DNA from: Escherichia phage K1E
Direction: 5' to 3' (one strand)
Length of the DNA stretch: 44,246 nucleotides
Sequence record: KY435490
This document shows, piece after piece, positions 1 through 44,246 of the stretch. The notes under the pieces were generated by a model. The model saw nothing but the letters and a program-made list of their open reading frames with translations. It did no database searches and was not told where the DNA came from. Every line of letters starts with the position of its first letter. The first letter of the stretch is position 1. The translations under genes were made by a program, and so were the position numbers.

Positions 1-1651
1 ATACACGATTGTCATTTGCAATCTGCATCTTATAGCAGTATATATCAGTAGGGTGTCCATGACCTTTAAATGGGTCTTTATCTTTGTTGTCACCATAAGT
101 CATTGGGTTGAAATGGTTTTCACCACCAAAGATATAGTAAATGTAGCTGTCTTTAACTACAACAGAACCTACACCTACACTAGAGTTCACAATGTCACCT
201 TGATAGATTTGGTCTGTGATGTTAACCCATTCAATATCATCTGCATTCCAATTGTTTACATTCAATCGTGCATAGAAGGTACGAGGATAAGCTGCCTTGT
301 AACGATCATCTGGTGCACCTGCTTCCCATTCATTTTCTGCACGTTCTGAACCAAACATAATAAGGTCATCTCCTACTTTAGCAAAAGGTAAGGTAGTATG
401 ATGCACATTATGTGGAAATCTTAGTGACTCCCAAGTCTGACCTATATCTCTACTACGATGCAGAGAGCTTCCTAGTCGGTCGCCACGAGTACCACGAGTG
501 ATAAGGTATAATACACCGTCATAGTACTTGATGCATGGCTCTGCCGCATCTGGTTCATACTCAGCTGGTATCTGACGACGAACATAATTAGATGGGCTAT
601 TGAAAGCATCAGGGAAGTAGAAAAGACCAACTTCTCGGGGAGCTACATCACCTTGATGATAGCCCATAACAAAGCCATTGTTATCAATAGTAGCAAAGCT
701 ATGAACTTCAGTAACACGAGGTATCAGGCCAAGATCTGTCTTACGCCATGGAGACTTATGGAAGGAAGTACCCATGTGCCAATTCTTTCCAGCATTGTTC
801 AAATCAGAGGTCTGCTGATTGGCTGTAAGAACCGTGAAGTTGTCCTTATCTATAACTGTTGCAACTTTCATATCACCAGTTACACCTGTTACCGCAGAAT
901 TAGAGAAGCTAACAAAATCGCCCACGAATAATCCGTGATCAGGTACATGGATTGTTGCATAACGCTGATTTGCAGCCTTAGTGATACCACCAGTAAGATG
1001 CAGACTACGAGACATAGGGCGATCCCACAATGCACAATTGGTTAGTGCGTTCTTGGCTAAAGTACGTGTTTCAATCATGGCAAACAGACGGTTGCGACAT
1101 ACACCCATACTCATACAATGATAGTTCACTGTAGGGTAATCTGGATGCAGATCAGTTAACCACTCTGGTGTAGACCATGTTTGACCATCGTCACCAGACT
1201 TAATCCATGATACATGCAGACGACTAACACCATGACGGTCACTACCCATGTAAGGTGCATATATCACGTTCTCATATACAAACGCTTTGTCTTGAGGCCA
1301 AGCATTGTAATAAGGGTTATCCGTGATTTTATAGAGTTCACCATTGATAAAACCTTTACTCACATAGTAAAGAGGTTGACCTGCTAAACGTTCCCATACG
1401 AAGCGGGTATTATAGAATCGCTCCATATCAGGTAAAGATGATACTTTGTAAGTAGCACCAGCACCGTCAATTCTCTTACCTGAAGCCATCGCTGCATTTA
1501 CTGCATCTTGGTCGTTTGTCTTACCATCACCTTTGGCTCCAAAGTCTTTAAGCGATACAACCTCGGTGAGCTTGTCATCCAAGTTACGCCAGATTGCACC
1601 TGCTATTTTACTCTTGAATTTAACTAATGAAGAACCTAGTCTTTGAATCAT
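1..1651 (-). CDS. Endosialidase (endo-N-acetylneuraminidase) tailspike, N-terminal part; the CDS runs off the window start and continues at 43230..44014
   Basis: ATG at 1649-1651 preceded by GGAGG; translation MIQRLGSSLVKFKSKIAGAIWRNLDDKLTEVVSLKDFGAKGDGKTND... recognised from memory as K1E/K1F-type endosialidase; frame is continuous across the duplicated ends with ORF 43230..44204 (811 codons in total). Confidence 0.88.
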   Translation of the reverse strand, partial: MIQRLGSSLVKFKSKIAGAIWRNLDDKLTEVVSLKDFGAKGDGKTNDQDAVNAAMASGKRIDGAGATYKVSSLPDMERFYNTRFVWERLAGQPLYYVSKGFINGELYKITDNPYYNAWPQDKAFVYENVIYAPYMGSDRHGVSRLHVSWIKSGDDGQTWSTPEWLTDLHPDYPTVNYHCMSMGVCRNRLFAMIETRTLAKNALTNCALWDRPMSRSLHLTGGITKAANQRYATIHVPDHGLFVGDFVSFSNSAVTGVTGDMKVATVIDKDNFTVLTANQQTSDLNNAGKNWHMGTSFHKSPWRKTDLGLIPRVTEVHSFATIDNNGFVMGYHQGDVAPREVGLFYFPDAFNSPSNYVRRQIPAEYEPDAAEPCIKYYDGVLYLITRGTRGDRLGSSLHRSRDIGQTWESLRFPHNVHHTTLPFAKVGDDLIMFGSERAENEWEAGAPDDRYKAAYPRTFYARLNVNNWNADDIEWVNITDQIYQGDIVNSSVGVGSVVVKDSYIYYIFGGENHFNPMTYGDNKDKDPFKGHGHPTDIYCYKMQIANDNRV

Positions 1652-1718
1652 GTAACCTCCTTTTCTGAAAGGCTACCATCATGATAACCTTTAAGAAAAG
1701 TTGCGCGAAAAGCAGTGC

Positions 1719-2054
1719 TTACGCACTGACAATGTGTTTACCTAGAATGTAAACATCTACATCTACGTCTATTTCAACTTGTGCTGTATGGAACACATGT
1801 ACTTCTAATCTAGTATCTGACACTTTAGTAATCCAAGCTGTACAAAGTGTAGGTGTACTTAATGATACAAGTGATGCCCACGAAGAATCTAAATCTCCTG
1901 TTGCAGGTACTTCTATCTCAATTTTAGTATCTTCACTTGGAACTACACCTTCAAATGTAACACGCCTTTTAGATAGTAAATTATCCAATAATGTAGCTAG
2001 TACAGTATCTCTATGTAGTAAGCCAGTTGTCTTGGGTTTAGTTAACTTAGCCAT
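1719..2054 (-). CDS. Small protein (111 aa) immediately upstream of the endosialidase; possibly a remnant or N-terminal fragment of a second tailspike
   Basis: Internal ATG at 2054 preceded by AGGAG (track ORF 1719..2114 starts further upstream without an RBS); phage promoter just upstream at 2139..2156. Confidence 0.5.
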   Translation of the reverse strand: MAKLTKPKTTGLLHRDTVLATLLDNLLSKRRVTFEGVVPSEDTKIEIEVPATGDLDSSWASLVSLSTPTLCTAWITKVSDTRLEVHVFHTAQVEIDVDVDVYILGKHIVSA

Positions 2055-2138
2055 ATACTCTCCTATTACTTCCCAATCCTCCCTATGAAGATTGGCTAGT
2101 AATAGGCCGCTCAAAAGAACGGCACTATCTTATCTCTT

Positions 2139-2156
2139 CTATAGTGTCCAGTAAAT
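2139..2156 (-). promoter_or_regulatory. Phage RNAP promoter (ATTTACTGGACACTATAG) ahead of the tailspike genes
   Basis: Exact match to the consensus repeated in this genome; SP6-type promoter family. Confidence 0.7.
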
Positions 2157-2185
2157 CGTAAGACACTGATACATAAAACTATGTA

Positions 2186-2383
2186 TTAATTATACCCGCG
2201 TTCTAGCGAGAGAATGTACAGACCTAATTTTGTAGCGTCAGGCTTACTGAAGCAGACTTTATCGTCCACCTCGTAGACTGCCGTAATCGTCGGCTTCAGA
2301 GGCTTCACCTTTGGATTCTCTGGTAACGCCGTCTGACACCCTGAAGTGATCAGCGAACCAATCAGCAGGATTGTCGCTAGCAT
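2186..2383 (-). CDS. Rz1-like o-spanin (outer-membrane lipoprotein), overlapping the Rz-like gene in another frame
   Basis: Internal ATG at 2383 with GAGG RBS; MLATILLIGSLITSGCQT... has a lipobox (LITSGC) and a Pro-rich mature part. Confidence 0.5.
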   Translation of the reverse strand: MLATILLIGSLITSGCQTALPENPKVKPLKPTITAVYEVDDKVCFSKPDATKLGLYILSLERGYN

Positions 2384-2480
2384 GATTCGCCTCACTTTGT
2401 GCCTCCTTCTCTTCCTTCTTCTTCTTAGCGGCAAGCAGCAGGCCAATAAGACCTGCTACCACCTCTAGCACCTTATTCAC
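2259..2480 (-). CDS. Rz-like i-spanin candidate (N-terminal transmembrane helix)
   Basis: GTG start; MNKVLEVVAGLIGLLLAAKKKKEEKE...; overlaps the lipoprotein ORF as in Rz/Rz1 pairs. Confidence 0.45.
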   Translation of the reverse strand: MNKVLEVVAGLIGLLLAAKKKKEEKEAQSEANHASDNPADWFADHFRVSDGVTRESKGEASEADDYGSLRGGR

Positions 2481-2622
2481 AGGTGATTACTTGGCACACC
2501 ACGTCAGTGACGGAACCTTCCGTACCTTCACCAAAATCTACGCCAAGTCCTACAGAAACAAGGGCAATCACCAGTGCAACCAGTGCACCTACCACCTTCT
2601 TAGACTTAAACAACTTTTTCAT
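2473..2622 (-). CDS. Small single-TM membrane protein (49 aa), holin/antiholin-like, between the endolysin and the spanins
   Basis: ATG at 2622 after AGGGGAG; MKKLFKSKKVVGALVALVIALVSVGLGVDFGEGTEGSVTDVVCQVITCE; below the ORF-track cutoff. Confidence 0.35.
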   Translation of the reverse strand: MKKLFKSKKVVGALVALVIALVSVGLGVDFGEGTEGSVTDVVCQVITCE

Positions 2623-2720
2623 TGCATCTCCCCTTCCATTGAGCTAGCAGGTCCGAGTAGTTCTTCCAGTCATCATAGTTGCCGCCCTCGGCAGCTTGAG
2701 CAACCATGCGCTCACACCAT

Positions 2721-3074
2721 TCAACACAACTTACCATCGCGCACACCCATCTCGTACATCAATGTGAGTGAAGTTTGGTAAGACCCAATGCCATATCTAT
2801 TAGGGTATCGTGCTGTTAGGTAAGACCATACACGATACGGTGTAATACCTTGTACCTTAATATCAGCAGCCTTACCTGTAAGATGCATGGAGTTCTTAGC
2901 TCCACCTACGTTGGCGTTGTGCTTAGCACAGCGATGACCAGAAGTGATAACTACAGGTACGCCAAAATGCTCACGTACATCTGTTACTACCTGTAATAAC
3001 TCAGCATCAACAGTGGATGTACAGCACCCACAACGGCAAGCAAACTCTTTACGCTTGAAGTACTTGTTAAGCAT
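2721..3074 (-). CDS. Endolysin, peptidase M15 family (zinc D-Ala-D-Ala carboxypeptidase / L-Ala-D-Glu peptidase fold)
   Basis: SMHLTGKAAD matches the SxHxxGxAxD signature; internal ATG at 3074 overlaps the upstream stop (TAATAATG). Confidence 0.75.
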   Translation of the reverse strand: MLNKYFKRKEFACRCGCCTSTVDAELLQVVTDVREHFGVPVVITSGHRCAKHNANVGGAKNSMHLTGKAADIKVQGITPYRVWSYLTARYPNRYGIGSYQTSLTLMYEMGVRDGKLC

Positions 3075-3076
3075 TA

Positions 3077-3367
3077 TTAGCCCCCTGCTGGAGTGACAGG
3101 TGCCACCTCCATAGTAGTTGCATCCCACTTGTCAGTTGGTTCACTACCACGTGCAATAGCGATGTACAAGGAGTTGACACCCTTCTCTACAGCAACCATG
3201 GCGCCTTTCTGTTTACCAGATAGGTGTTTAATGTTGATAGGGTGATCTTTCTTCTTAAGGTCTTCTTCAGCAACAATAGGCAGAGGGATTGCCGTTGCAG
3301 TGGTTTGTACAGTTTTTACTCGAAAAGCCTGACCAGTAACAGTACCTGTGTTTCCATATTTAGACAT
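3077..3367 (-). CDS. Hypothetical protein, paralogue B of a tandem pair
   Basis: 96 aa; shares ...SGKQKGAMV...AIA... with the adjacent ORF 3380..3658. Confidence 0.55.
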   Translation of the reverse strand: MSKYGNTGTVTGQAFRVKTVQTTATAIPLPIVAEEDLKKKDHPINIKHLSGKQKGAMVAVEKGVNSLYIAIARGSEPTDKWDATTMEVAPVTPAGG

Positions 3368-3802: not shown

Positions 3803-3820
3803 CTATAGTGTCCGGTAATT
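3803..3820 (-). promoter_or_regulatory. Phage RNAP promoter (AATTACCGGACACTATAG)
   Basis: Consensus match directly downstream of the terminase large subunit gene. Confidence 0.65.
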
Positions 3821-5717
3821 AATAAGTCCTTGAAATCCTTGCAGAAAGTGTATTTCTGCTTGCCGATTTACTCCTGTAATTCTGACCGTATACTCTTTGC
3901 TGCATAGCCACGGAAGTGTTGGTTACTCTTCGCTCAGTGCCATAATCTCCATAGAGCATTGCCCTACGGAGGTGAGGTGTGTTCATAGCATGGATGTAAT
4001 CGCGCATCTCCTGCGCTCTGAGGCGATTAATCCGTGTAACCTCGTCATAGTCTATCTGAGAAGTTAATTGCCGTATAGCGCCATACAGAGCGTCTAAGCG
4101 GTCATCGTGTCGTAGGCTGTTCTTCTCAATCGTGATGTTCGACATTTGATTGAAAAGGCTGTATGACATGCGTAGTTCAAGCGGATAGTGCTGTACCGAC
4201 TCAAAATCAGACTTGACCATCTCTGCGTTGAAGATGAGCCTGTGGGCCGCCATTAGTGGCTCTAGTGTTTCAATGATACGCAACTCTTTCTGTCCGGTGG
4301 CGTAATCTTCCTCCAGAACCACAGGCCACTCTCGTTCAAAGTATGGCTTTATAACGGCCTCAAACGCGCCATGACCAAAGTTCTTTTCAATGAATACCTC
4401 TTTAACACCTGCCTGCTTTGCGGCCTGCACAATGCGATTCAGGGACGATTCGCGGTATCCTCCCGGCACACCAAAGCACTGATACACATAAATGAATGTG
4501 CCGTGCAGGAAGACGATAGCCACACCCGTTTCATCCCCGTTCTTACCGCCACCCGCAGGGTCAATATACATAATCTTACGGGTAACAGCACCCCATTCAT
4601 AAGGACGGGCTACAGGTCTATACATAAAGTCTGTAGGCTTGTTACCATACTTAGGGGCATCGCCAATGATATTAATAGAATCATTACTCCACGTAGGCAT
4701 CACAGGGACTTCCTCTGTACCGAACGAAGTAAAGATTAGATTGTTTAGACGAAGTGGGTATCTGTCAGCATCCATCATGCGAGTGTTCAGCATAAACTGA
4801 AGCTGGAACTTAGCAGCACCTTGAGAGATTTCCTTCTCAATCAACACGTCATCATCGTACATTTCAGGTGCGCAAGGTGCACCACTGTTACCGTCTAACC
4901 CATAACCAGAGCGAAGTGCTGGGTTGTCTTTCATATCCTGCACAATCATAGGTGCAAGGAAGTCACCATAGCATTGCTCCTGCTCTACTGATGGATAACG
5001 TGCAGTCCAGATACGAACCGAGTAACCACGAGCAGGTAAGTTGTTGTAGATAGAGTTTACGTTCTGAGGAGTACCAAGGTAGATGATATCACCAAACTGG
5101 TTGATAGATTCAAACTCCTTGGTCAACTCCTCAAGCAAGGCACGGCCTGCTGCTGTACGAGCATTCTGCATCGATTCTACGTCATCTGCTAGAATAATAT
5201 CAGCACGAGCACCCTGCATACCTGCTTCGATAGAGTAACAGGATACAGAAGGTGACTTATCGCTGCCGCGTAACGTGTAGTGAATCTCAAATGCTTTGAC
5301 TGATGCACGGTCGCCAGCGTATATGTCCGGTAGCATAAACTCAAGGAAGTCTAGGCCACGGAAGATTTTCACTACCCAACCTGCGATTTCCTCTGCTCGC
5401 TTGGCGTTTTGGGATACTACCATGATACGCTTATGGGGTTCATGGATGATACGGAAAACAGTATAGATTGCTGATAGTGTAGTTTTAGCGATACCACGGG
5501 GCGCTTCGATGAGGCGATATTTATGTCCATAGAATAGAAACTTTAAAATATCGGCCTGCATACGAATCAGATGAGGGTTGCCTGCAATCAAGTTATGGAT
5601 AACTGTATCTGCAAAGAGAAGCAAACCTTCCGCCGTATACGGAAAAGTTTGCTGTAACTCCTGTAGCATCTCCCATCTGGCAAGAGCCTCCGCTTGTGAT
5701 TCTCTTGCCTTAGCCAT
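3819..5717 (-). CDS. Terminase large subunit (T7 gp19-like)
   Basis: 632 aa; ATG at 5717 after GGAGG, overlapping the upstream stop (TGATG); ATPase plus nuclease architecture. Confidence 0.93.
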   Translation of the reverse strand: MAKARESQAEALARWEMLQELQQTFPYTAEGLLLFADTVIHNLIAGNPHLIRMQADILKFLFYGHKYRLIEAPRGIAKTTLSAIYTVFRIIHEPHKRIMVVSQNAKRAEEIAGWVVKIFRGLDFLEFMLPDIYAGDRASVKAFEIHYTLRGSDKSPSVSCYSIEAGMQGARADIILADDVESMQNARTAAGRALLEELTKEFESINQFGDIIYLGTPQNVNSIYNNLPARGYSVRIWTARYPSVEQEQCYGDFLAPMIVQDMKDNPALRSGYGLDGNSGAPCAPEMYDDDVLIEKEISQGAAKFQLQFMLNTRMMDADRYPLRLNNLIFTSFGTEEVPVMPTWSNDSINIIGDAPKYGNKPTDFMYRPVARPYEWGAVTRKIMYIDPAGGGKNGDETGVAIVFLHGTFIYVYQCFGVPGGYRESSLNRIVQAAKQAGVKEVFIEKNFGHGAFEAVIKPYFEREWPVVLEEDYATGQKELRIIETLEPLMAAHRLIFNAEMVKSDFESVQHYPLELRMSYSLFNQMSNITIEKNSLRHDDRLDALYGAIRQLTSQIDYDEVTRINRLRAQEMRDYIHAMNTPHLRRAMLYGDYGTERRVTNTSVAMQQRVYGQNYRSKSASRNTLSARISRTY

Positions 5718-6016
5718 CAATCCTCCTTAGTAAATTGAATAATCTTACCACTGGATGCCTCTCGGATAGCCTTGAGGCGCTTAGATAACTTGGATTCTTC
5801 CTGCTGTGCAGCAGGTGTAGCAGTGATGCCATTATCCAGTACCCACTTACACATAGCACCAATGTCTTTACCAGAGACTAAATGCAGTGCTGCATCTGGG
5901 TCTTCTTCTATAGTGTCCAGTATTGCCTGTGCTTTCTTATTAAAGATTTTGGTAATAGCACCATGCAGGATGCCAACTTCATCCTCTGTAGCTGCATGTT
6001 TATTGTGTACGCTCAT
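5717..6016 (-). CDS. Terminase small subunit candidate (T7 gp18 position)
   Basis: 99 aa, immediately upstream of and overlapping the terminase large subunit; GGGAGG RBS. Confidence 0.6.
   Translation of the reverse strand: MSVHNKHAATEDEVGILHGAITKIFNKKAQAILDTIEEDPDAALHLVSGKDIGAMCKWVLDNGITATPAAQQEESKLSKRLKAIREASSGKIIQFTKED
5908..5925 (-). promoter_or_regulatory. Promoter-like sequence (CAATACTGGACACTATAG) inside the terminase small subunit gene
   Basis: Core -13..+1 identical to consensus; -17..-15 divergent. Confidence 0.35.
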
Positions 6017-6641: not shown

Positions 6642-7604
6642 TTACACTAGTTGTAGCTTCATACTTACGACACACTCAGGTAATGGCTCACTGAAAGTGA
6701 TAGTAGACCCTACGATTTCATAAGCATTATTAGGTTGATACAGGCCATCCAAGTATACATCAAGACGTTGGAAAGCCGTTACAATGTCGATAGATTGTGT
6801 ACCTTCACTCACTGCTTGTGTAAAGAGGATAGTATCCGCACTTGTAGGTGGGGTTAAGCGACTACCGATAAGCACATAAACTTCATCCCCAGCCTGTAAT
6901 GGCTCGGACAGGGTTATAACATTATACCCCACTGATACTGCACCTGCTAGTTCATGCTGGAATACACCGTTTATAAACACCATAGCATCATCAAATGAGT
7001 AAGGTGGTCGAATGATTTGCTCTCCACCGGAGGCGACCATATACCAAGGAATAGTGCGATGAGATACACCAGACACCATTCCTCTCTTAATACCAGCAAT
7101 CTCTATATCTTGTGCAGAGTTCCAATCAGTATGCTTCTTGTCGATAGCATCTAGCTGTGATTTATTTACTGCATCTTTTGGATTCTCACCATCAGCTAGG
7201 TCAGTAATCTTATTGCCGCCCCAGCTTACATTCTGCTTAATGAAGTATCCTTCTGGATAAAACCCATCAAGTAACTCCTGTGTAATCTCCAGTATATGAA
7301 TGAAAGAGCCATTTAAAGACTTCATATCCAAGGTAACACCACGGTCAAACTCAGCGTATGGATATTCCTTTTGTACTTCCCTTCGAATACGGAACTTCAA
7401 ACCTGCAACAGGTGCTACATCAAAAGTGATTTGATGCGTACCAGTTAATTGCCAGCCAGATGTAACCTCAATCCAAGTGTTACCTTGAAGAGATTCCACT
7501 ATCACATCTGAGGCACGAAGATAGCCTTTATCCCTACCAGCAAAGCTAAAGGGATAGGTTACTTGCGTACCGTTGGCTATATGTTCTGTGAAAGTATAAC
7601 TCAT
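6642..7604 (-). CDS. Tail fiber-like adaptor protein (T7 gp17 N-terminal-like) that docks the tailspikes
   Basis: 320 aa at the gp17 position, too short for a full fibre. Confidence 0.75.
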   Translation of the reverse strand: MSYTFTEHIANGTQVTYPFSFAGRDKGYLRASDVIVESLQGNTWIEVTSGWQLTGTHQITFDVAPVAGLKFRIRREVQKEYPYAEFDRGVTLDMKSLNGSFIHILEITQELLDGFYPEGYFIKQNVSWGGNKITDLADGENPKDAVNKSQLDAIDKKHTDWNSAQDIEIAGIKRGMVSGVSHRTIPWYMVASGGEQIIRPPYSFDDAMVFINGVFQHELAGAVSVGYNVITLSEPLQAGDEVYVLIGSRLTPPTSADTILFTQAVSEGTQSIDIVTAFQRLDVYLDGLYQPNNAYEIVGSTITFSEPLPECVVSMKLQLV

Positions 7605-27288: not shown

Positions 27289-27343
27289 ATTAAATTCTCC
27301 TTTTGTTGGTTATGGCATTATCGCCGATTAAAATTCTTCTCTT

Positions 27344-42259: not shown

Positions 42260-43095
42260 TACTAAGATAAACCTAGGTTGTCTAACATGTGAGACTAAGG
42301 AAAGCAATAGATACAGAGCTAGGATAGACTAGGTTGGCTAGGTTTCTGGTGTTCCTCCTACTGCATCTTATTACTATTACTTCTTATTAGCGGTCTACCG
42401 ACCGCGACCTAATTGCATCTTATAGCTTTAGCTATGCAATCACTAAGATCTGGCACTAAGACTAACTAAGGTACACTACTAAGTTGATACTAAGCTAAGC
42501 ACTAAGGCTTTAACTAAGGTAGCCCACTAAGGCTAACCTAAGCCATCCATCAAGGAATAACCTAAGGTACACAAGCGCGGTGAGTGTAGCGTAACGTAGT
42601 GGAGCGAAACGAACAGATAGCCCACCCACGCCCACCCTGTCAAACGCTCAGGAATGGCCCTAAAACGGCCTGTGTAAGCCCTAAGCGGTTGCACTAAGGC
42701 AATCACCTTGTCCAATACTAAGGCGTGCCCTAGCGCTTCCTAGGCGTTCTCCTTGTGCAGCCACTAAGAGCAGACCTCGGCAAGCCCTAGGCCACCCGTC
42801 GAAGACGGACCAGCCCAGCCCAATTCCCAAGCCAACCGCAGCGCGGCCCCATATGGGGGAAATCCGGCGAGGGCGAGGGCGAGACACCTCACACACGCCT
42901 ATATCAAAATTTTGACTTTGGTTACTTTGTGAGCGACCTCCGTATCTTCTCGTCCCTTATTTGGTCTTCACTAAGAATGTACCTCTTACGACCTAGGACA
43001 TCACTGAGTATACACAACAAAGATAACATACCTACACCCTCCTTTGATGGCACTAAGAGCAAACCTAGGTCTGCCCTTGTGTACACTAAGATATT
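42260..43095. repeat. Terminal-region repeat arrays of (C)ACTAAG(G)/CCTAAGG short motifs flanking a GC-rich island
   Basis: About 17 copies of ACTAAG in a noncoding stretch; analogous to T7 CCTAAAG arrays beside the terminal repeat. Confidence 0.5.
42280..42295. repeat. Palindrome-like GTCTAACATGTGAGAC (copy 7, one mismatch)
   Basis: In the terminal noncoding region; its flank is an inverted copy of the copy-5 flank. Confidence 0.45.
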
Positions 43096-43102
43096 AACCT
43101 GC

Positions 43103-43252
43103 TTAAGCAGAAGATGCAGAAGGTTTCTTCAAGGCACGACGTTGTACATCCTTGGCAATGGCGTATGCCTGCTTAGGGTCACGTCCTGATTGAATAAGTT
43201 CTTCTGCGTTCTGGCGTACAGCAGCTTGCTTAACTGATTTTATTAGTGGCAT
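43103..43252 (-). CDS. Possible small basic protein (49 aa) overlapping the last 23 nt of the endosialidase gene
   Basis: ATG 4 nt after GAGGAG; MPLIKSVKQAAVRQNAEELIQSGRDPKQAYAIAKDVQRRALKKPSASSA; below the ORF-track size cutoff. Confidence 0.2.
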   Translation of the reverse strand: MPLIKSVKQAAVRQNAEELIQSGRDPKQAYAIAKDVQRRALKKPSASSA

Positions 43253-44246
43253 ACATCTCCTCTAATTTATCAAGACGATGGCGAGTATAGGCAGCCTCTA
43301 GGATTAGAACTTCACTATATCTCACACCGTACCTACCTTCTTCGAAGGACACAATTCCATACTTAATGGCATCTAACCCTTCATCTTCAAAAGCAGCTAC
43401 AATATCCTGAGCCAAGACACCGAAGTGTATGCTATCAAGGTTCCTCTCTGCTTCACTATTCAAACCATACTGTTTAAAACCAACCCTGCTCCAAGCCTTT
43501 AACACCTTGGTATTAATACTAGAGATACCGTACTTGTGGTCAGCATCTGAAGTTGTAACAGGGTCACTGCCTAGGTAGATGGTAGTGAATCGGTTACTAG
43601 GCCCCCCAGCAGCAAACTGGTTATCTACAGCAGGCATGATTGGTGCACCTTGGAATAGGTGCTCATTTCCGTTATAAGTGATACGCTTAGCCTTACTTGA
43701 ATTAGAGCCGTGCAAAGTTATCTGTGCACCTGAAGAGGACGAAGTCTTTTCTCCACCACAAATAATCAAACGTTGACCAGTTGGGTTGTCCTTTGGAACA
43801 GACTTACCAATAAAGCCATATTCACCTTCCATCTGCACTTCAGATCGTATATTGGAACTTGTGCTTGCTTTAAGTGTTAAGTGTCCAACTTTAGTATCCT
43901 CTGTAACAATGTTATCTGAGAAATACAAAGGTGCAGAGATATTTCGTATTCCATCAGTACCCATGAAAGTAGGTATAGCTTGACCCGGAGTTGCACCATA
44001 TGTAAACTTACGAGATACACGATTGTCATTTGCAATCTGCATCTTATAGCAGTATATATCAGTAGGGTGTCCATGACCTTTAAATGGGTCTTTATCTTTG
44101 TTGTCACCATAAGTCATTGGGTTGAAATGGTTTTCACCACCAAAGATATAGTAAATGTAGCTGTCTTTAACTACAACAGAACCTACACCTACACTAGAGT
44201 TCACAATGTCACCTTGATAGATTTGGTCTGTGATGTTAACCCATTC
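43230..44246 (-). CDS. Endosialidase tailspike, C-terminal part (same gene as 1..1651; 44015..44246 duplicates 1..232)
   Basis: Track ORF 43230..44204 is open up to the window end; frame matches the N-terminal segment after removing the 232-bp duplication. Confidence 0.88.
   Translation of the reverse strand, partial: EWVNITDQIYQGDIVNSSVGVGSVVVKDSYIYYIFGGENHFNPMTYGDNKDKDPFKGHGHPTDIYCYKMQIANDNRVSRKFTYGATPGQAIPTFMGTDGIRNISAPLYFSDNIVTEDTKVGHLTLKASTSSNIRSEVQMEGEYGFIGKSVPKDNPTGQRLIICGGEKTSSSSGAQITLHGSNSSKAKRITYNGNEHLFQGAPIMPAVDNQFAAGGPSNRFTTIYLGSDPVTTSDADHKYGISSINTKVLKAWSRVGFKQYGLNSEAERNLDSIHFGVLAQDIVAAFEDEGLDAIKYGIVSFEEGRYGVRYSEVLILEAAYTRHRLDKLEEMYATNKIS

Follow-up and report, generated by a model that had tools for sequence, protein, structure and literature searches.

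An endosialidase gene and a short upstream gene form the likely receptor-binding cassette of a K1E-like Vectrevirus

The window, by which we mean the whole 44,246-nt stretch of DNA analyzed here, contains what is very probably (about 95%) the receptor-binding cassette of a K1E-like Vectrevirus, an SP6-like podovirus of the Autographiviridae. An SP6-type promoter is followed by a 111-codon ORF (gene 46), a conserved 67-nt spacer, and an 811-codon endosialidase gene (gene 47). Each element that an earlier note on this DNA had named was found where that note had placed it, all on the minus strand (Table 1). Over 2.3 kb, the cassette DNA is 97.7-98.0% identical to that of K1E, Phi100-A, and about 25 further K1-infecting phages. 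The region marks the window as belonging to a K1-capsule-specific, K1E-like phage, which helps in annotation and in selecting phages or depolymerases for use against neonatal-meningitis E. coli. The cassette is an ordinary, well-known module, 96-98% identical to published phages; its layout and promoter, the adaptor system, and the idea of module exchange were all published in 1995-2007. The mildly new points are restricted to the 111-aa gp46: its lack of a lyase relation past the docking peptide, its confinement to K1E-like phages, the purifying selection on it, and its dispensability in at least one laboratory lineage.

Table 1. Positions of the cassette features and related elements in the window
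Feature	Position	Strand	Remark
SP6/K1E-type phage RNA-polymerase promoter ATTTACTGGACACTATAGAAGAG, upstream of gene 46	2134..2156	-	Exact consensus match
Gene 46 ribosome-binding site AGGAGA	2059..2064	-	Corresponds to X78310 ribosome-binding site at -10..-5 from ATG
Gene 46, 111-aa "stub": heptapeptide MAKLTKP, predicted helix, small β-sandwich body	1719..2054	-	107/111 vs K1E gp46
Hairpin 1 (CAGTGC-GTAA-GCACTG), start of gene 46/47 spacer	1713..1728	-	Conserved; gp46 TAA stop (1721..1719) in loop
Hairpin 2 (7 + 11 bp stem), abuts gene 47 ribosome-binding site	1660..1700	-	MFE and centroid folds
Gene 47 ribosome-binding site AGGAGG	1661..1656	-	Adjoins hairpin 2
Gene 47 codons 1-550: docking undecapeptide, N-terminal extension, β-propeller with inserted β-barrel, E371/R386/R437	1..1651	-	
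Gene 47 codons 551-811 and stop: stalk (tail-spike) and C-terminal intramolecular chaperone domain	43230..44014	-	Pfam, PDB 3gw6
Gene 47 chaperone domain, from S706	43550..43233	-	
Gene 37, 320-aa adaptor with docking sites for gp46 and gp47	6642..7604	-	317/320 identical to K1E gp37
232-nt duplicate of window 1..232	44015..44246	.	Assembly overlap of circularised contig, not biology

Phage K1E (AM084415 / NC_007637; X78310) has the same order of promoter, 111-aa gp46, spacer, and 811-aa endosialidase, with the same docking peptides. Its DNA is 97.7% identical over the 2.3 kb, and its gp47, gp46, and gp37 proteins are 98.2%, 96.4%, and 99% identical, respectively. The partial K1E record X78310, from the 1990s, already annotates the same promoter, a "12 kDa ORF," and the endosialidase. 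Elsewhere the genomes differ. The large-terminase gene is uninterrupted here, whereas K1E has the homing-endonuclease gene 40.5, and the remaining genome forms a 94-98% mosaic, matched best by Phi100-A and SHAK7163/7704 and not by K1E.

Gene 47 had been described in the earlier note as an ORF of 811 codons spanning the junction of the window ends. When the ends are joined directly, a stop codon arises where they meet and leaves two partial ORFs that overlap, as if the endosialidase gene were truly split or cut short by a genome end and hence non-functional. However, the frame breaks on such naive joining because the window begins and ends with the same 232 nt: positions 1..232 are an exact copy of 44015..44246, and neighbouring lengths give only random identity. 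Removal of one copy yields a 44,014-bp circle with one intact gene (1651..1 plus 44014..43230), which starts at ATG 1651, runs to base 1, and continues past the collapsed junction, collinear with K1E gp47. With the overlap collapsed, the earlier note thus gave the right length. With the break explained by the exact terminal identity, and with the true K1E termini mapping elsewhere, to window 42,884 and 42,618, the split-gene explanation has next to no chance of being right and was rejected. The overlap itself was absent from the earlier note, and the junction is an assembly artefact within the gene, not a genome end.

A protein search of the 811-codon ORF bore out its identification as an endosialidase. 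Five Pfam domains were found in gp47 (End_beta_propel, E = 7e-222; End_tail_spike; End_beta_barrel; End_N_terminal; and Peptidase_S74), with PF12218, PF12217 (E = 7e-222, full-length, 1-367/367), PF12195, and PF12219 all scoring far over the gathering threshold. Residues 546-705 fall within End_tail_spike and residues 706-764 within Peptidase_S74. Residues 38-705 align with the K1F endosialidase structures 3gvl/1v0e at E = 0, and the C-terminal region also matches PDB 3gw6 and 3gud. The architecture, an N-terminal extension, a six-bladed β-propeller with an inserted β-barrel, and a stalk, is of the endosialidase type. Residues E371, R386, and R437 align at a constant offset with E581, R596, and R647 of the K1F endosialidase, in conserved contexts; the latter three are the catalytic residues of endoNF, numbered as in Stummeyer 2005. 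Relative to K1E gp47, 796 of the 811 residues are identical, and none of the 15 substitutions falls at the catalytic triad. Given its 98% identity with the characterised K1E enzyme, gp47 would be expected to cleave α-2,8-polysialic acid and to give plaques or haloes on K1 strains, with the β-propeller bearing E371, R386, and R437 cutting the polymer of the E. coli K1 capsule. The chaperone-release serine S706 is also present (context DPVTT|SDADHK). By extension from the literature, the C-terminal chaperone domain would aid trimer folding and then be cleaved off at S706.

The β-propeller, β-barrel, stalk, and chaperone domains of gp47 align position by position with those of endoNF of phage K1F (PDB 1v0e, 3gvl, 3gw6), and the E/R/R triad is common to both. 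The two differ in their mode of attachment. K1F endoNF attaches directly and carries an N-terminal capsid-binding domain that resembles T7 gp17 (PMC6872550), whereas gp47 lacks this domain and has an 11-residue peptide and a separate adaptor instead. K1E gp37, the counterpart of the adaptor encoded in the window, is annotated "endosialidase adaptor protein." Reviews describe gp37 as linking gp46 and gp47 to the virion (PMC6966330, PMC5380687), and cryo-EM of K1E, as summarized in one of them, has gp37 connecting both proteins (PMC6966330). The docking peptides MAKLTKP and MIQRLGSSLVK have been published, and the copies in the window are identical to them (PMC6872550). The undecapeptide at the N-terminus of gp47 is the same in the window, K1-5, and SP6. 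The heptapeptide at the N-terminus of gp46 is the same in the window and in the K5 lyase of K1-5, and reads MAKITKP in Mt1B1_P10 and M-SLTKP in SP6. All parts of the adaptor-mediated two-site system of SP6 and K1E are thus present: gp37, both peptides, the promoter before gene 46, and the conserved spacer. If docking proceeds as described in the literature, the undecapeptide would dock the gp47 trimer on gp37, and gp46 would keep its heptapeptide for the other docking site. Salmonella phage SP6 (genus Zindervirus) has the same architecture and spacer hairpins, along with the undecapeptide and an LTKP motif at the gp46 N-terminus, but both of its spike bodies differ and are aimed at Salmonella O-antigen.

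The slot occupied by gene 46 is filled differently in related phages. Phage K1-5 (AY370674) has the promoter, 5′ UTR, heptapeptide, spacer hairpins, undecapeptide, and endosialidase (97.4% amino acid identity) in common with the window, but in K1-5, as in AAPEc6 and ULINTec7, the slot holds a 632-aa K5 lyase. Mt1B1_P10 and Vectrevirus T145P2, with the same endosialidase (97.4% amino acid identity) and the same flanks, represent a third state of the slot, a 479-aa protein whose N-terminal motif is pectate-lyase-like. Here, the slot comprises only 336 nt, holds neither a K5 lyase nor another depolymerase, and encodes a protein with no enzyme homology past the docking peptide. Homology to K1-5 and Mt1B1_P10 breaks off sharply at window 2029 and 2023, respectively, and resumes at 1728 and 1748; for K1-5, the point of return is exactly hairpin 1. 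Many Vectreviruses retain only the flanks, with both spike bodies different. Since the homology of these relatives breaks exactly at the docking peptides, the earlier note was right to propose this slot as a natural site for the exchange of modules. Such exchange is a published model (Leiman 2007 and Stummeyer 2006, as summarized in PMC6966330, PMC6872550, and PMC5380687). The conserved segments, promoter to heptapeptide and spacer to undecapeptide, flank the variable bodies and would serve as homology arms for tailspike swaps.

Because gp46 has no depolymerase domain, the phage is predicted to be specific for K1 only, unlike K1-5, which infects both K1 and K5 strains (PMC6966330). Dual specificity of the K1-5 type was rejected, as there is no full-length second tailspike in the slot. 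The K1E-like, single-specificity arrangement proposed earlier is borne out by both the absence of the K5 lyase and the close match of gp46 to its K1E counterpart.

In the mechanical ORF list, the gene 46 frame extends to TTG 2114 (131 aa). We place the start at ATG 2054, as judged from the AGGAGA ribosome-binding site and the match to K1E gp46. Three of the four differences between the two gp46 proteins are specific to the K1E record (residues 51-53). Reviews describe K1E gp46 as small, truncated, and enzymatically inactive (PMC6966330, PMC5380687). Apart from its docking peptide, the protein has no relatives outside K1E-like phages in any of the searches. With residues 12-111, tblastn against 50,697 phage records (E ≤ 1) returned no lyase or other tailspike. 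An exhaustive phmmer search of 1.84 billion representative proteins found nothing outside K1E-like phages, as did a word-indexed search of 5.8 billion proteins, the docking peptide excepted. Pfam assigned no domain, with only a sub-threshold match to an ASH domain (E = 0.06). The body of gp46 is thus an orphan sequence confined to K1E-like phages. The small gene had been called "tailspike-like," a description that holds for the N-terminal docking heptapeptide but not for the remaining ~95 residues, which match nothing else.

These searches bear directly on the kflA-truncation hypothesis (Clarke et al. 2000), in which, as outlined in PMC5380687, a K5-type phage gained an endosialidase and its lyase gene was then truncated to give K1E. 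The first 14 residues of gp46 are nearly identical to those of the K5 lyase (MAKLTKPKTTGLLH versus MAKLTKPNTEGILH), and the sole PDB match of gp46 is the K5 lyase 2x3h (residues 1-45, E = 0.02), a match driven by those 14 residues. However, a simple truncation would leave lyase sequence behind, and none is left: DNA homology to K1-5 gene 46 stops 26 nt into the gene and returns only at the spacer, and the residues beyond the docking peptide match neither lyase nor tailspike in the phage records or the protein set searched with phmmer. We therefore consider it very improbable that gp46 is a truncated K5 lyase of the KflA family, and rejected this origin.

Gene 46 is nevertheless under purifying selection. 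The dN/dS of gp46 is 0.24-0.44, and of the 44 substitutions that separate the window from ACG-C91, 23 are synonymous, whereas neutrality would give 24% (binomial P = 5e-5). About 20 independent isolates retain all 111 codons in frame, at a synonymous divergence of up to 0.37. Together with the conserved docking heptapeptide and a good ribosome-binding site, these results argue against gp46 being a functionless remnant of a lost second tailspike, a pseudogene in the making kept through its place between the promoter and the endosialidase gene. That explanation is possible, if doubtful. It is consistent with phage mutPK1A2, in which a 1-nt deletion truncates the gp46 homologue to 46 aa (the record says "premature termination"), yet the phage grows on a K1 strain. 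The homologue in PK1A was likewise recovered by tblastn in two pieces. The position of the TAA stop in the loop of hairpin 1 is as expected had a deletion or recombination fused the ORF to the spacer, and the lack of relatives of the gp46 body anywhere searched is also compatible with decay.

Selection on gene 46 and the conserved docking peptide could instead point to a working miniature receptor-binding or plug protein. Here, gp46 would be a selectively maintained trimeric knob from an unrelated cassette, seated on the second gp37 site, where it would stabilise the complex of adaptor and spike or set its orientation, and might also bind a cell-surface glycan through a lectin-like β-sandwich. 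The AlphaFold 2 model has a disordered peptide at the N-terminus, followed by a helix and a six-strand β-sandwich, and the reviewed K1E cryo-EM, with gp37 joining both proteins, would also fit. The model is, however, of low confidence (mean pLDDT 58.7; four near-identical sequences), and mutPK1A2 is viable with its truncated gene 46. We regard such a plug as unlikely; if it exists, its role would lie in particle stability, spike geometry, or secondary-glycan binding.

Whatever the role of gp46, its gene probably shares a promoter with the endosialidase. The sequence ATTTACTGGACACTATAGAAGAG occurs in seven copies in the window (≤3 mismatches), all on the minus strand, compared with none expected from 100 shuffles, and the K1E counterpart of the copy at 2156..2134 is annotated "promoter, 12kDa ORF" in X78310. 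No second promoter was found before gene 47, so both genes are most likely transcribed from the one upstream of gene 46. The small gene's "own promoter" of the earlier note thus lies where it was reported, but it most likely does not serve that gene alone. Phage RNA polymerase would start at this promoter and transcribe genes 46 and 47 as one unit.

Within the spacer, hairpin 1 is kept in K1-5, Mt1B1_P10, ACG-C91, and SP6, with a compensatory change from a T-A to a C-G pair in SP6, and its counterpart in KAW1A4500 bears the annotation of a putative terminator. A generic scan of 1400..2600 for sigma-70 promoters and intrinsic terminators gave nothing meaningful and did not call hairpin 1. Followed by CTTTTC, this hairpin could end part of the transcripts between the two genes, and for this reason we only infer their co-transcription. 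An Rfam scan of the whole window matched no family, hairpin 2 included. The 121-nt region that contains hairpin 2 has a folding z-score of -3.4, and the stem columns of this hairpin are nearly invariant in the spacer alignment of five phages, including SP6.

Every gene in this region lies on the minus strand; reading from 2500 downward, the order is lysis-gene end, promoter, ribosome-binding site, 111-codon ORF (gene 46), spacer, second ribosome-binding site and long ORF (gene 47), as listed in the table. A scan of the window for the promoter, allowing ≤3 mismatches, returned seven matches, on the minus strand only, compared with none in 100 dinucleotide-preserving shuffles; the promoter is therefore not a chance match. 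Two copies are identical at 23/23 nt to the promoter preceding gene 46, that promoter itself and the copy at 27339. The seven copies delimit the genome's middle and late transcription units. Since the same scan found no copy between genes 46 and 47, both genes are most likely served by the promoter at 2156.

Features of the tailspike region, phage promoter copies and Pfam domains of the endosialidase (gp47)
Feature	Position	Strand	Basis
Phage promoter ATTTACTGGACACTATAGAAGAG, 23 nt	2156..2134	-	sequence read
Ribosome-binding site AGGAGA (gene 46)	2064..2059	-	sequence read
111-codon ORF (gene 46)	2054..1719	-	sequence read
Gene 46/47 spacer, 67 nt	between genes 46 and 47	-	sequence read
Ribosome-binding site AGGAGG (gene 47)	1661..1656	-	sequence read
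Long ORF (gene 47)	from ATG 1651, running off the window start	-	sequence read
Seven phage RNA-polymerase promoter copies (match starts)	2134, 19092, 27339, 28485, 29253, 33626, 35937	all -	promoter scan
End_N_terminal	gp47 residues 39-102		Pfam
End_beta_propel	gp47 residues 103-545		Pfam, E = 7e-222
End_beta_barrel	gp47 residues 214-296		Pfam
End_tail_spike	gp47 residues 546-705		Pfam
Peptidase_S74	gp47 residues 706-764		Pfam

Joining the window end directly to the window start does not yield a continuous endosialidase gene, because positions 1..232 are exactly identical to 44015..44246 (232 nt); adjacent overlap lengths gave random identity only. This terminal identity is the untrimmed overlap of a circularised assembly that was opened within the endosialidase gene. 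Collapsing the overlap leaves a non-redundant unit of 44,014 bp and an 811-codon ORF running from 1651 to 1 and then from 44014 to 43230. Its last 23 nt overlap a 49-aa ORF homologous to gp48 (43103..43252, minus strand), an arrangement common to K1-5, ACG-C91 and others. The joined window ends do not mark a genome end. The genome ends of K1E, which has a direct terminal repeat of 288 bp, map to window positions 42,884 and 42,618; a single collapsed repeat copy lies in this G+C-rich stretch (0.52-0.63, compared with ~0.40 in the flanking sequence). A length of ~44.3 kb is probable for the packaged genome.

The promoter, the 111-codon ORF and the endosialidase claimed in the earlier note are all confirmed, the last at 811 codons once the overlap is collapsed. 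Its identity as an endosialidase is supported by matches to all five Pfam endosialidase domains, by alignment of K1F endosialidase crystal structures to residues 38-705 (and of the stalk-plus-chaperone structure 3gw6 to residues 588-764), and by the close match to K1E gp47, from which it differs at 15/811 positions. The catalytic residues of the endosialidase endoNF, reportedly E581, R596 and R647 from the 2005 work of Stummeyer, correspond at a constant alignment offset to gp47 E371, R386 and R437, all three of which are present. The predicted chaperone-release serine, S706, is present as well. Residues 2-46 of gp47 match the N-terminus of 7y5s, a solved 668-aa phage tail fibre, a likeness that fits a portable docking module.

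The gp37 adaptor gene (6642..7604, minus strand) encodes a protein identical at 317/320 residues to K1E gp37, the "endosialidase adaptor protein". Reviews of Leiman et al. 2007 and Stummeyer et al. 2006 (PMC6872550, PMC6966330, PMC5380687) describe two docking sites on gp37, one binding the gene-46 protein through the heptapeptide MAKLTKP and the other binding the gene-47 protein through the undecapeptide MIQRLGSSLVK. In the same reviews, K1-5, with a K5 lyase and an endosialidase, is described as infecting both K1 and K5 strains; K1E, with an endosialidase and a small, truncated gp46 that lacks enzymatic activity, is restricted to K1 hosts. Both peptides have exact matches in the gp46 and gp47 of the window.

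The gene-46 position holds the second tailspike in K1-5-type phages, and the earlier note had proposed this slot as a natural site of host-range module exchange. We located its breakpoints by pairwise blastn of the window against K1-5 and Mt1B1_P10. High identity runs from the upstream region across the promoter into gene 46, where it stops after the first 26-32 nt, at 2029 (K1-5) or 2023 (Mt1B1_P10); the body of gene 46 showed no similarity to either phage in these alignments, and 98% identity resumes at 1728 (K1-5) or 1748 (Mt1B1_P10). Endosialidase-carrying relatives show three slot states: the 111-aa gene (K1E type), a 632-aa K5 lyase (K1-5, AAPEc6, ULINTec7) or a 479-aa protein (Mt1B1_P10, T145P2). 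In many further Vectreviruses, similarity to the query ends at the heptapeptide and returns only over the spacer and the first codons of gene 47, both spike bodies being replaced. The breakpoints, the slot states and these flank-only phages bear out module exchange at the slot, in agreement with the published model. Residues 27-67 of the 479-aa protein of Mt1B1_P10 (record positions 1741..3180) resemble endosialidase residues 21-61 at 51% identity, including a pectate-lyase-like 'DFGAKGDG' motif.

Two conserved hairpins, which may serve as a terminator, an RNase III site or an element of translational control, lie in the spacer between genes 46 and 47. Hairpin 1 (6 bp, CAGTGC-GTAA-GCACTG, 1728..1713, minus strand) opens the spacer and is conserved in 5/5 aligned phages, with a compensatory T-A to C-G change in SP6. 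Hairpin 2 (7 + 11 bp, 1700..1660, minus strand) adjoins the gene-47 ribosome-binding site. A 121-nt region here has a better fold than shuffled sequences (z = -3.4). The hairpins matched no Rfam family and neither was called by a generic terminator scan; one relative's annotation marks hairpin 1 as a putative terminator. In the K1E lineage, the gp46 frame extends into hairpin 1 and ends at the TAA of its loop, whereas the gene-46 stop of K1-5, Mt1B1_P10 and SP6 lies upstream of the hairpin. The gp46 stop resembles a scar left by recombination or deletion, with the right-hand junction at the conserved spacer.

Beyond its first ~14 residues, gp46 had no detectable relative in protein, HMMER or tblastn searches. 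Among 5.8 billion proteins it matched only three clusters (83-98% identity, all 111 aa), an exhaustive HMMER search of 1.84 billion representatives returned its own cluster only, and tblastn with residues 12-111 matched 27 records, all K1E-like phages, even at E ≤ 1. On sequence grounds, the proposal of Clarke 2000 (as cited in PMC5380687) that gp46 arose by truncation of a K5 lyase therefore does not hold. Exactly 111 codons are kept in five lineages. Pairwise dN/dS was 0.24-0.44 for gp46 compared with 0.06-0.17 for the endosialidase, and in the most divergent gp46 pair 23/44 substitutions were synonymous, compared with 24% expected under neutrality (P = 5e-5). Judged by its constant length and these substitution patterns, gene 46 is not drifting freely. 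An essential role is argued against by mutPK1A2, a phage grown on a K1 strain, in which a 1-nt deletion noted in the record (MG004687) cuts the gp46 homologue (268..408) to 46 aa. Growth on a K1 laboratory host thus seems not to require gene 46. In PK1A (EF507428), gp46 matched by tblastn in two pieces, possibly owing to the same lesion.

The earlier note's interpretation of the layout as K1E-like is supported. The region is a textbook K1E arrangement and therefore already known. Window 1..2300 is, at the DNA level, 97.2-98.0% identical to ~20 records of K1-infecting phages, among them K1E AM084415 and X78310, a partial K1E record whose existing annotation covers the promoter, the gp90 endosialidase and a "12 kDa ORF" together with its ribosome-binding site. 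The gp46 of K1E differs from that of the window at 4/111 positions. At residues 51-53 (window 1896..1904), K1E AM084415 has T-A-W, against A-T-G in the window and in each of the three database clusters; the K1E reading may stem from a local sequencing error in that old reference and not from true variation. The remaining window is a mosaic, 94-98% identical to known K1-specific Vectreviruses, with best matches to Phi100-A in the early and replication half and to SHAK7163, ULINTec4 and K1E in the structural half. The phage adds a new isolate to a known species group and does not represent a new phage type. Its large terminase (3819..5720, minus strand) is a single uninterrupted 633-aa ORF, like that of K1-5, whereas in K1E the putative homing-endonuclease gene 40.5 splits the terminase gene into 40A and 40B.
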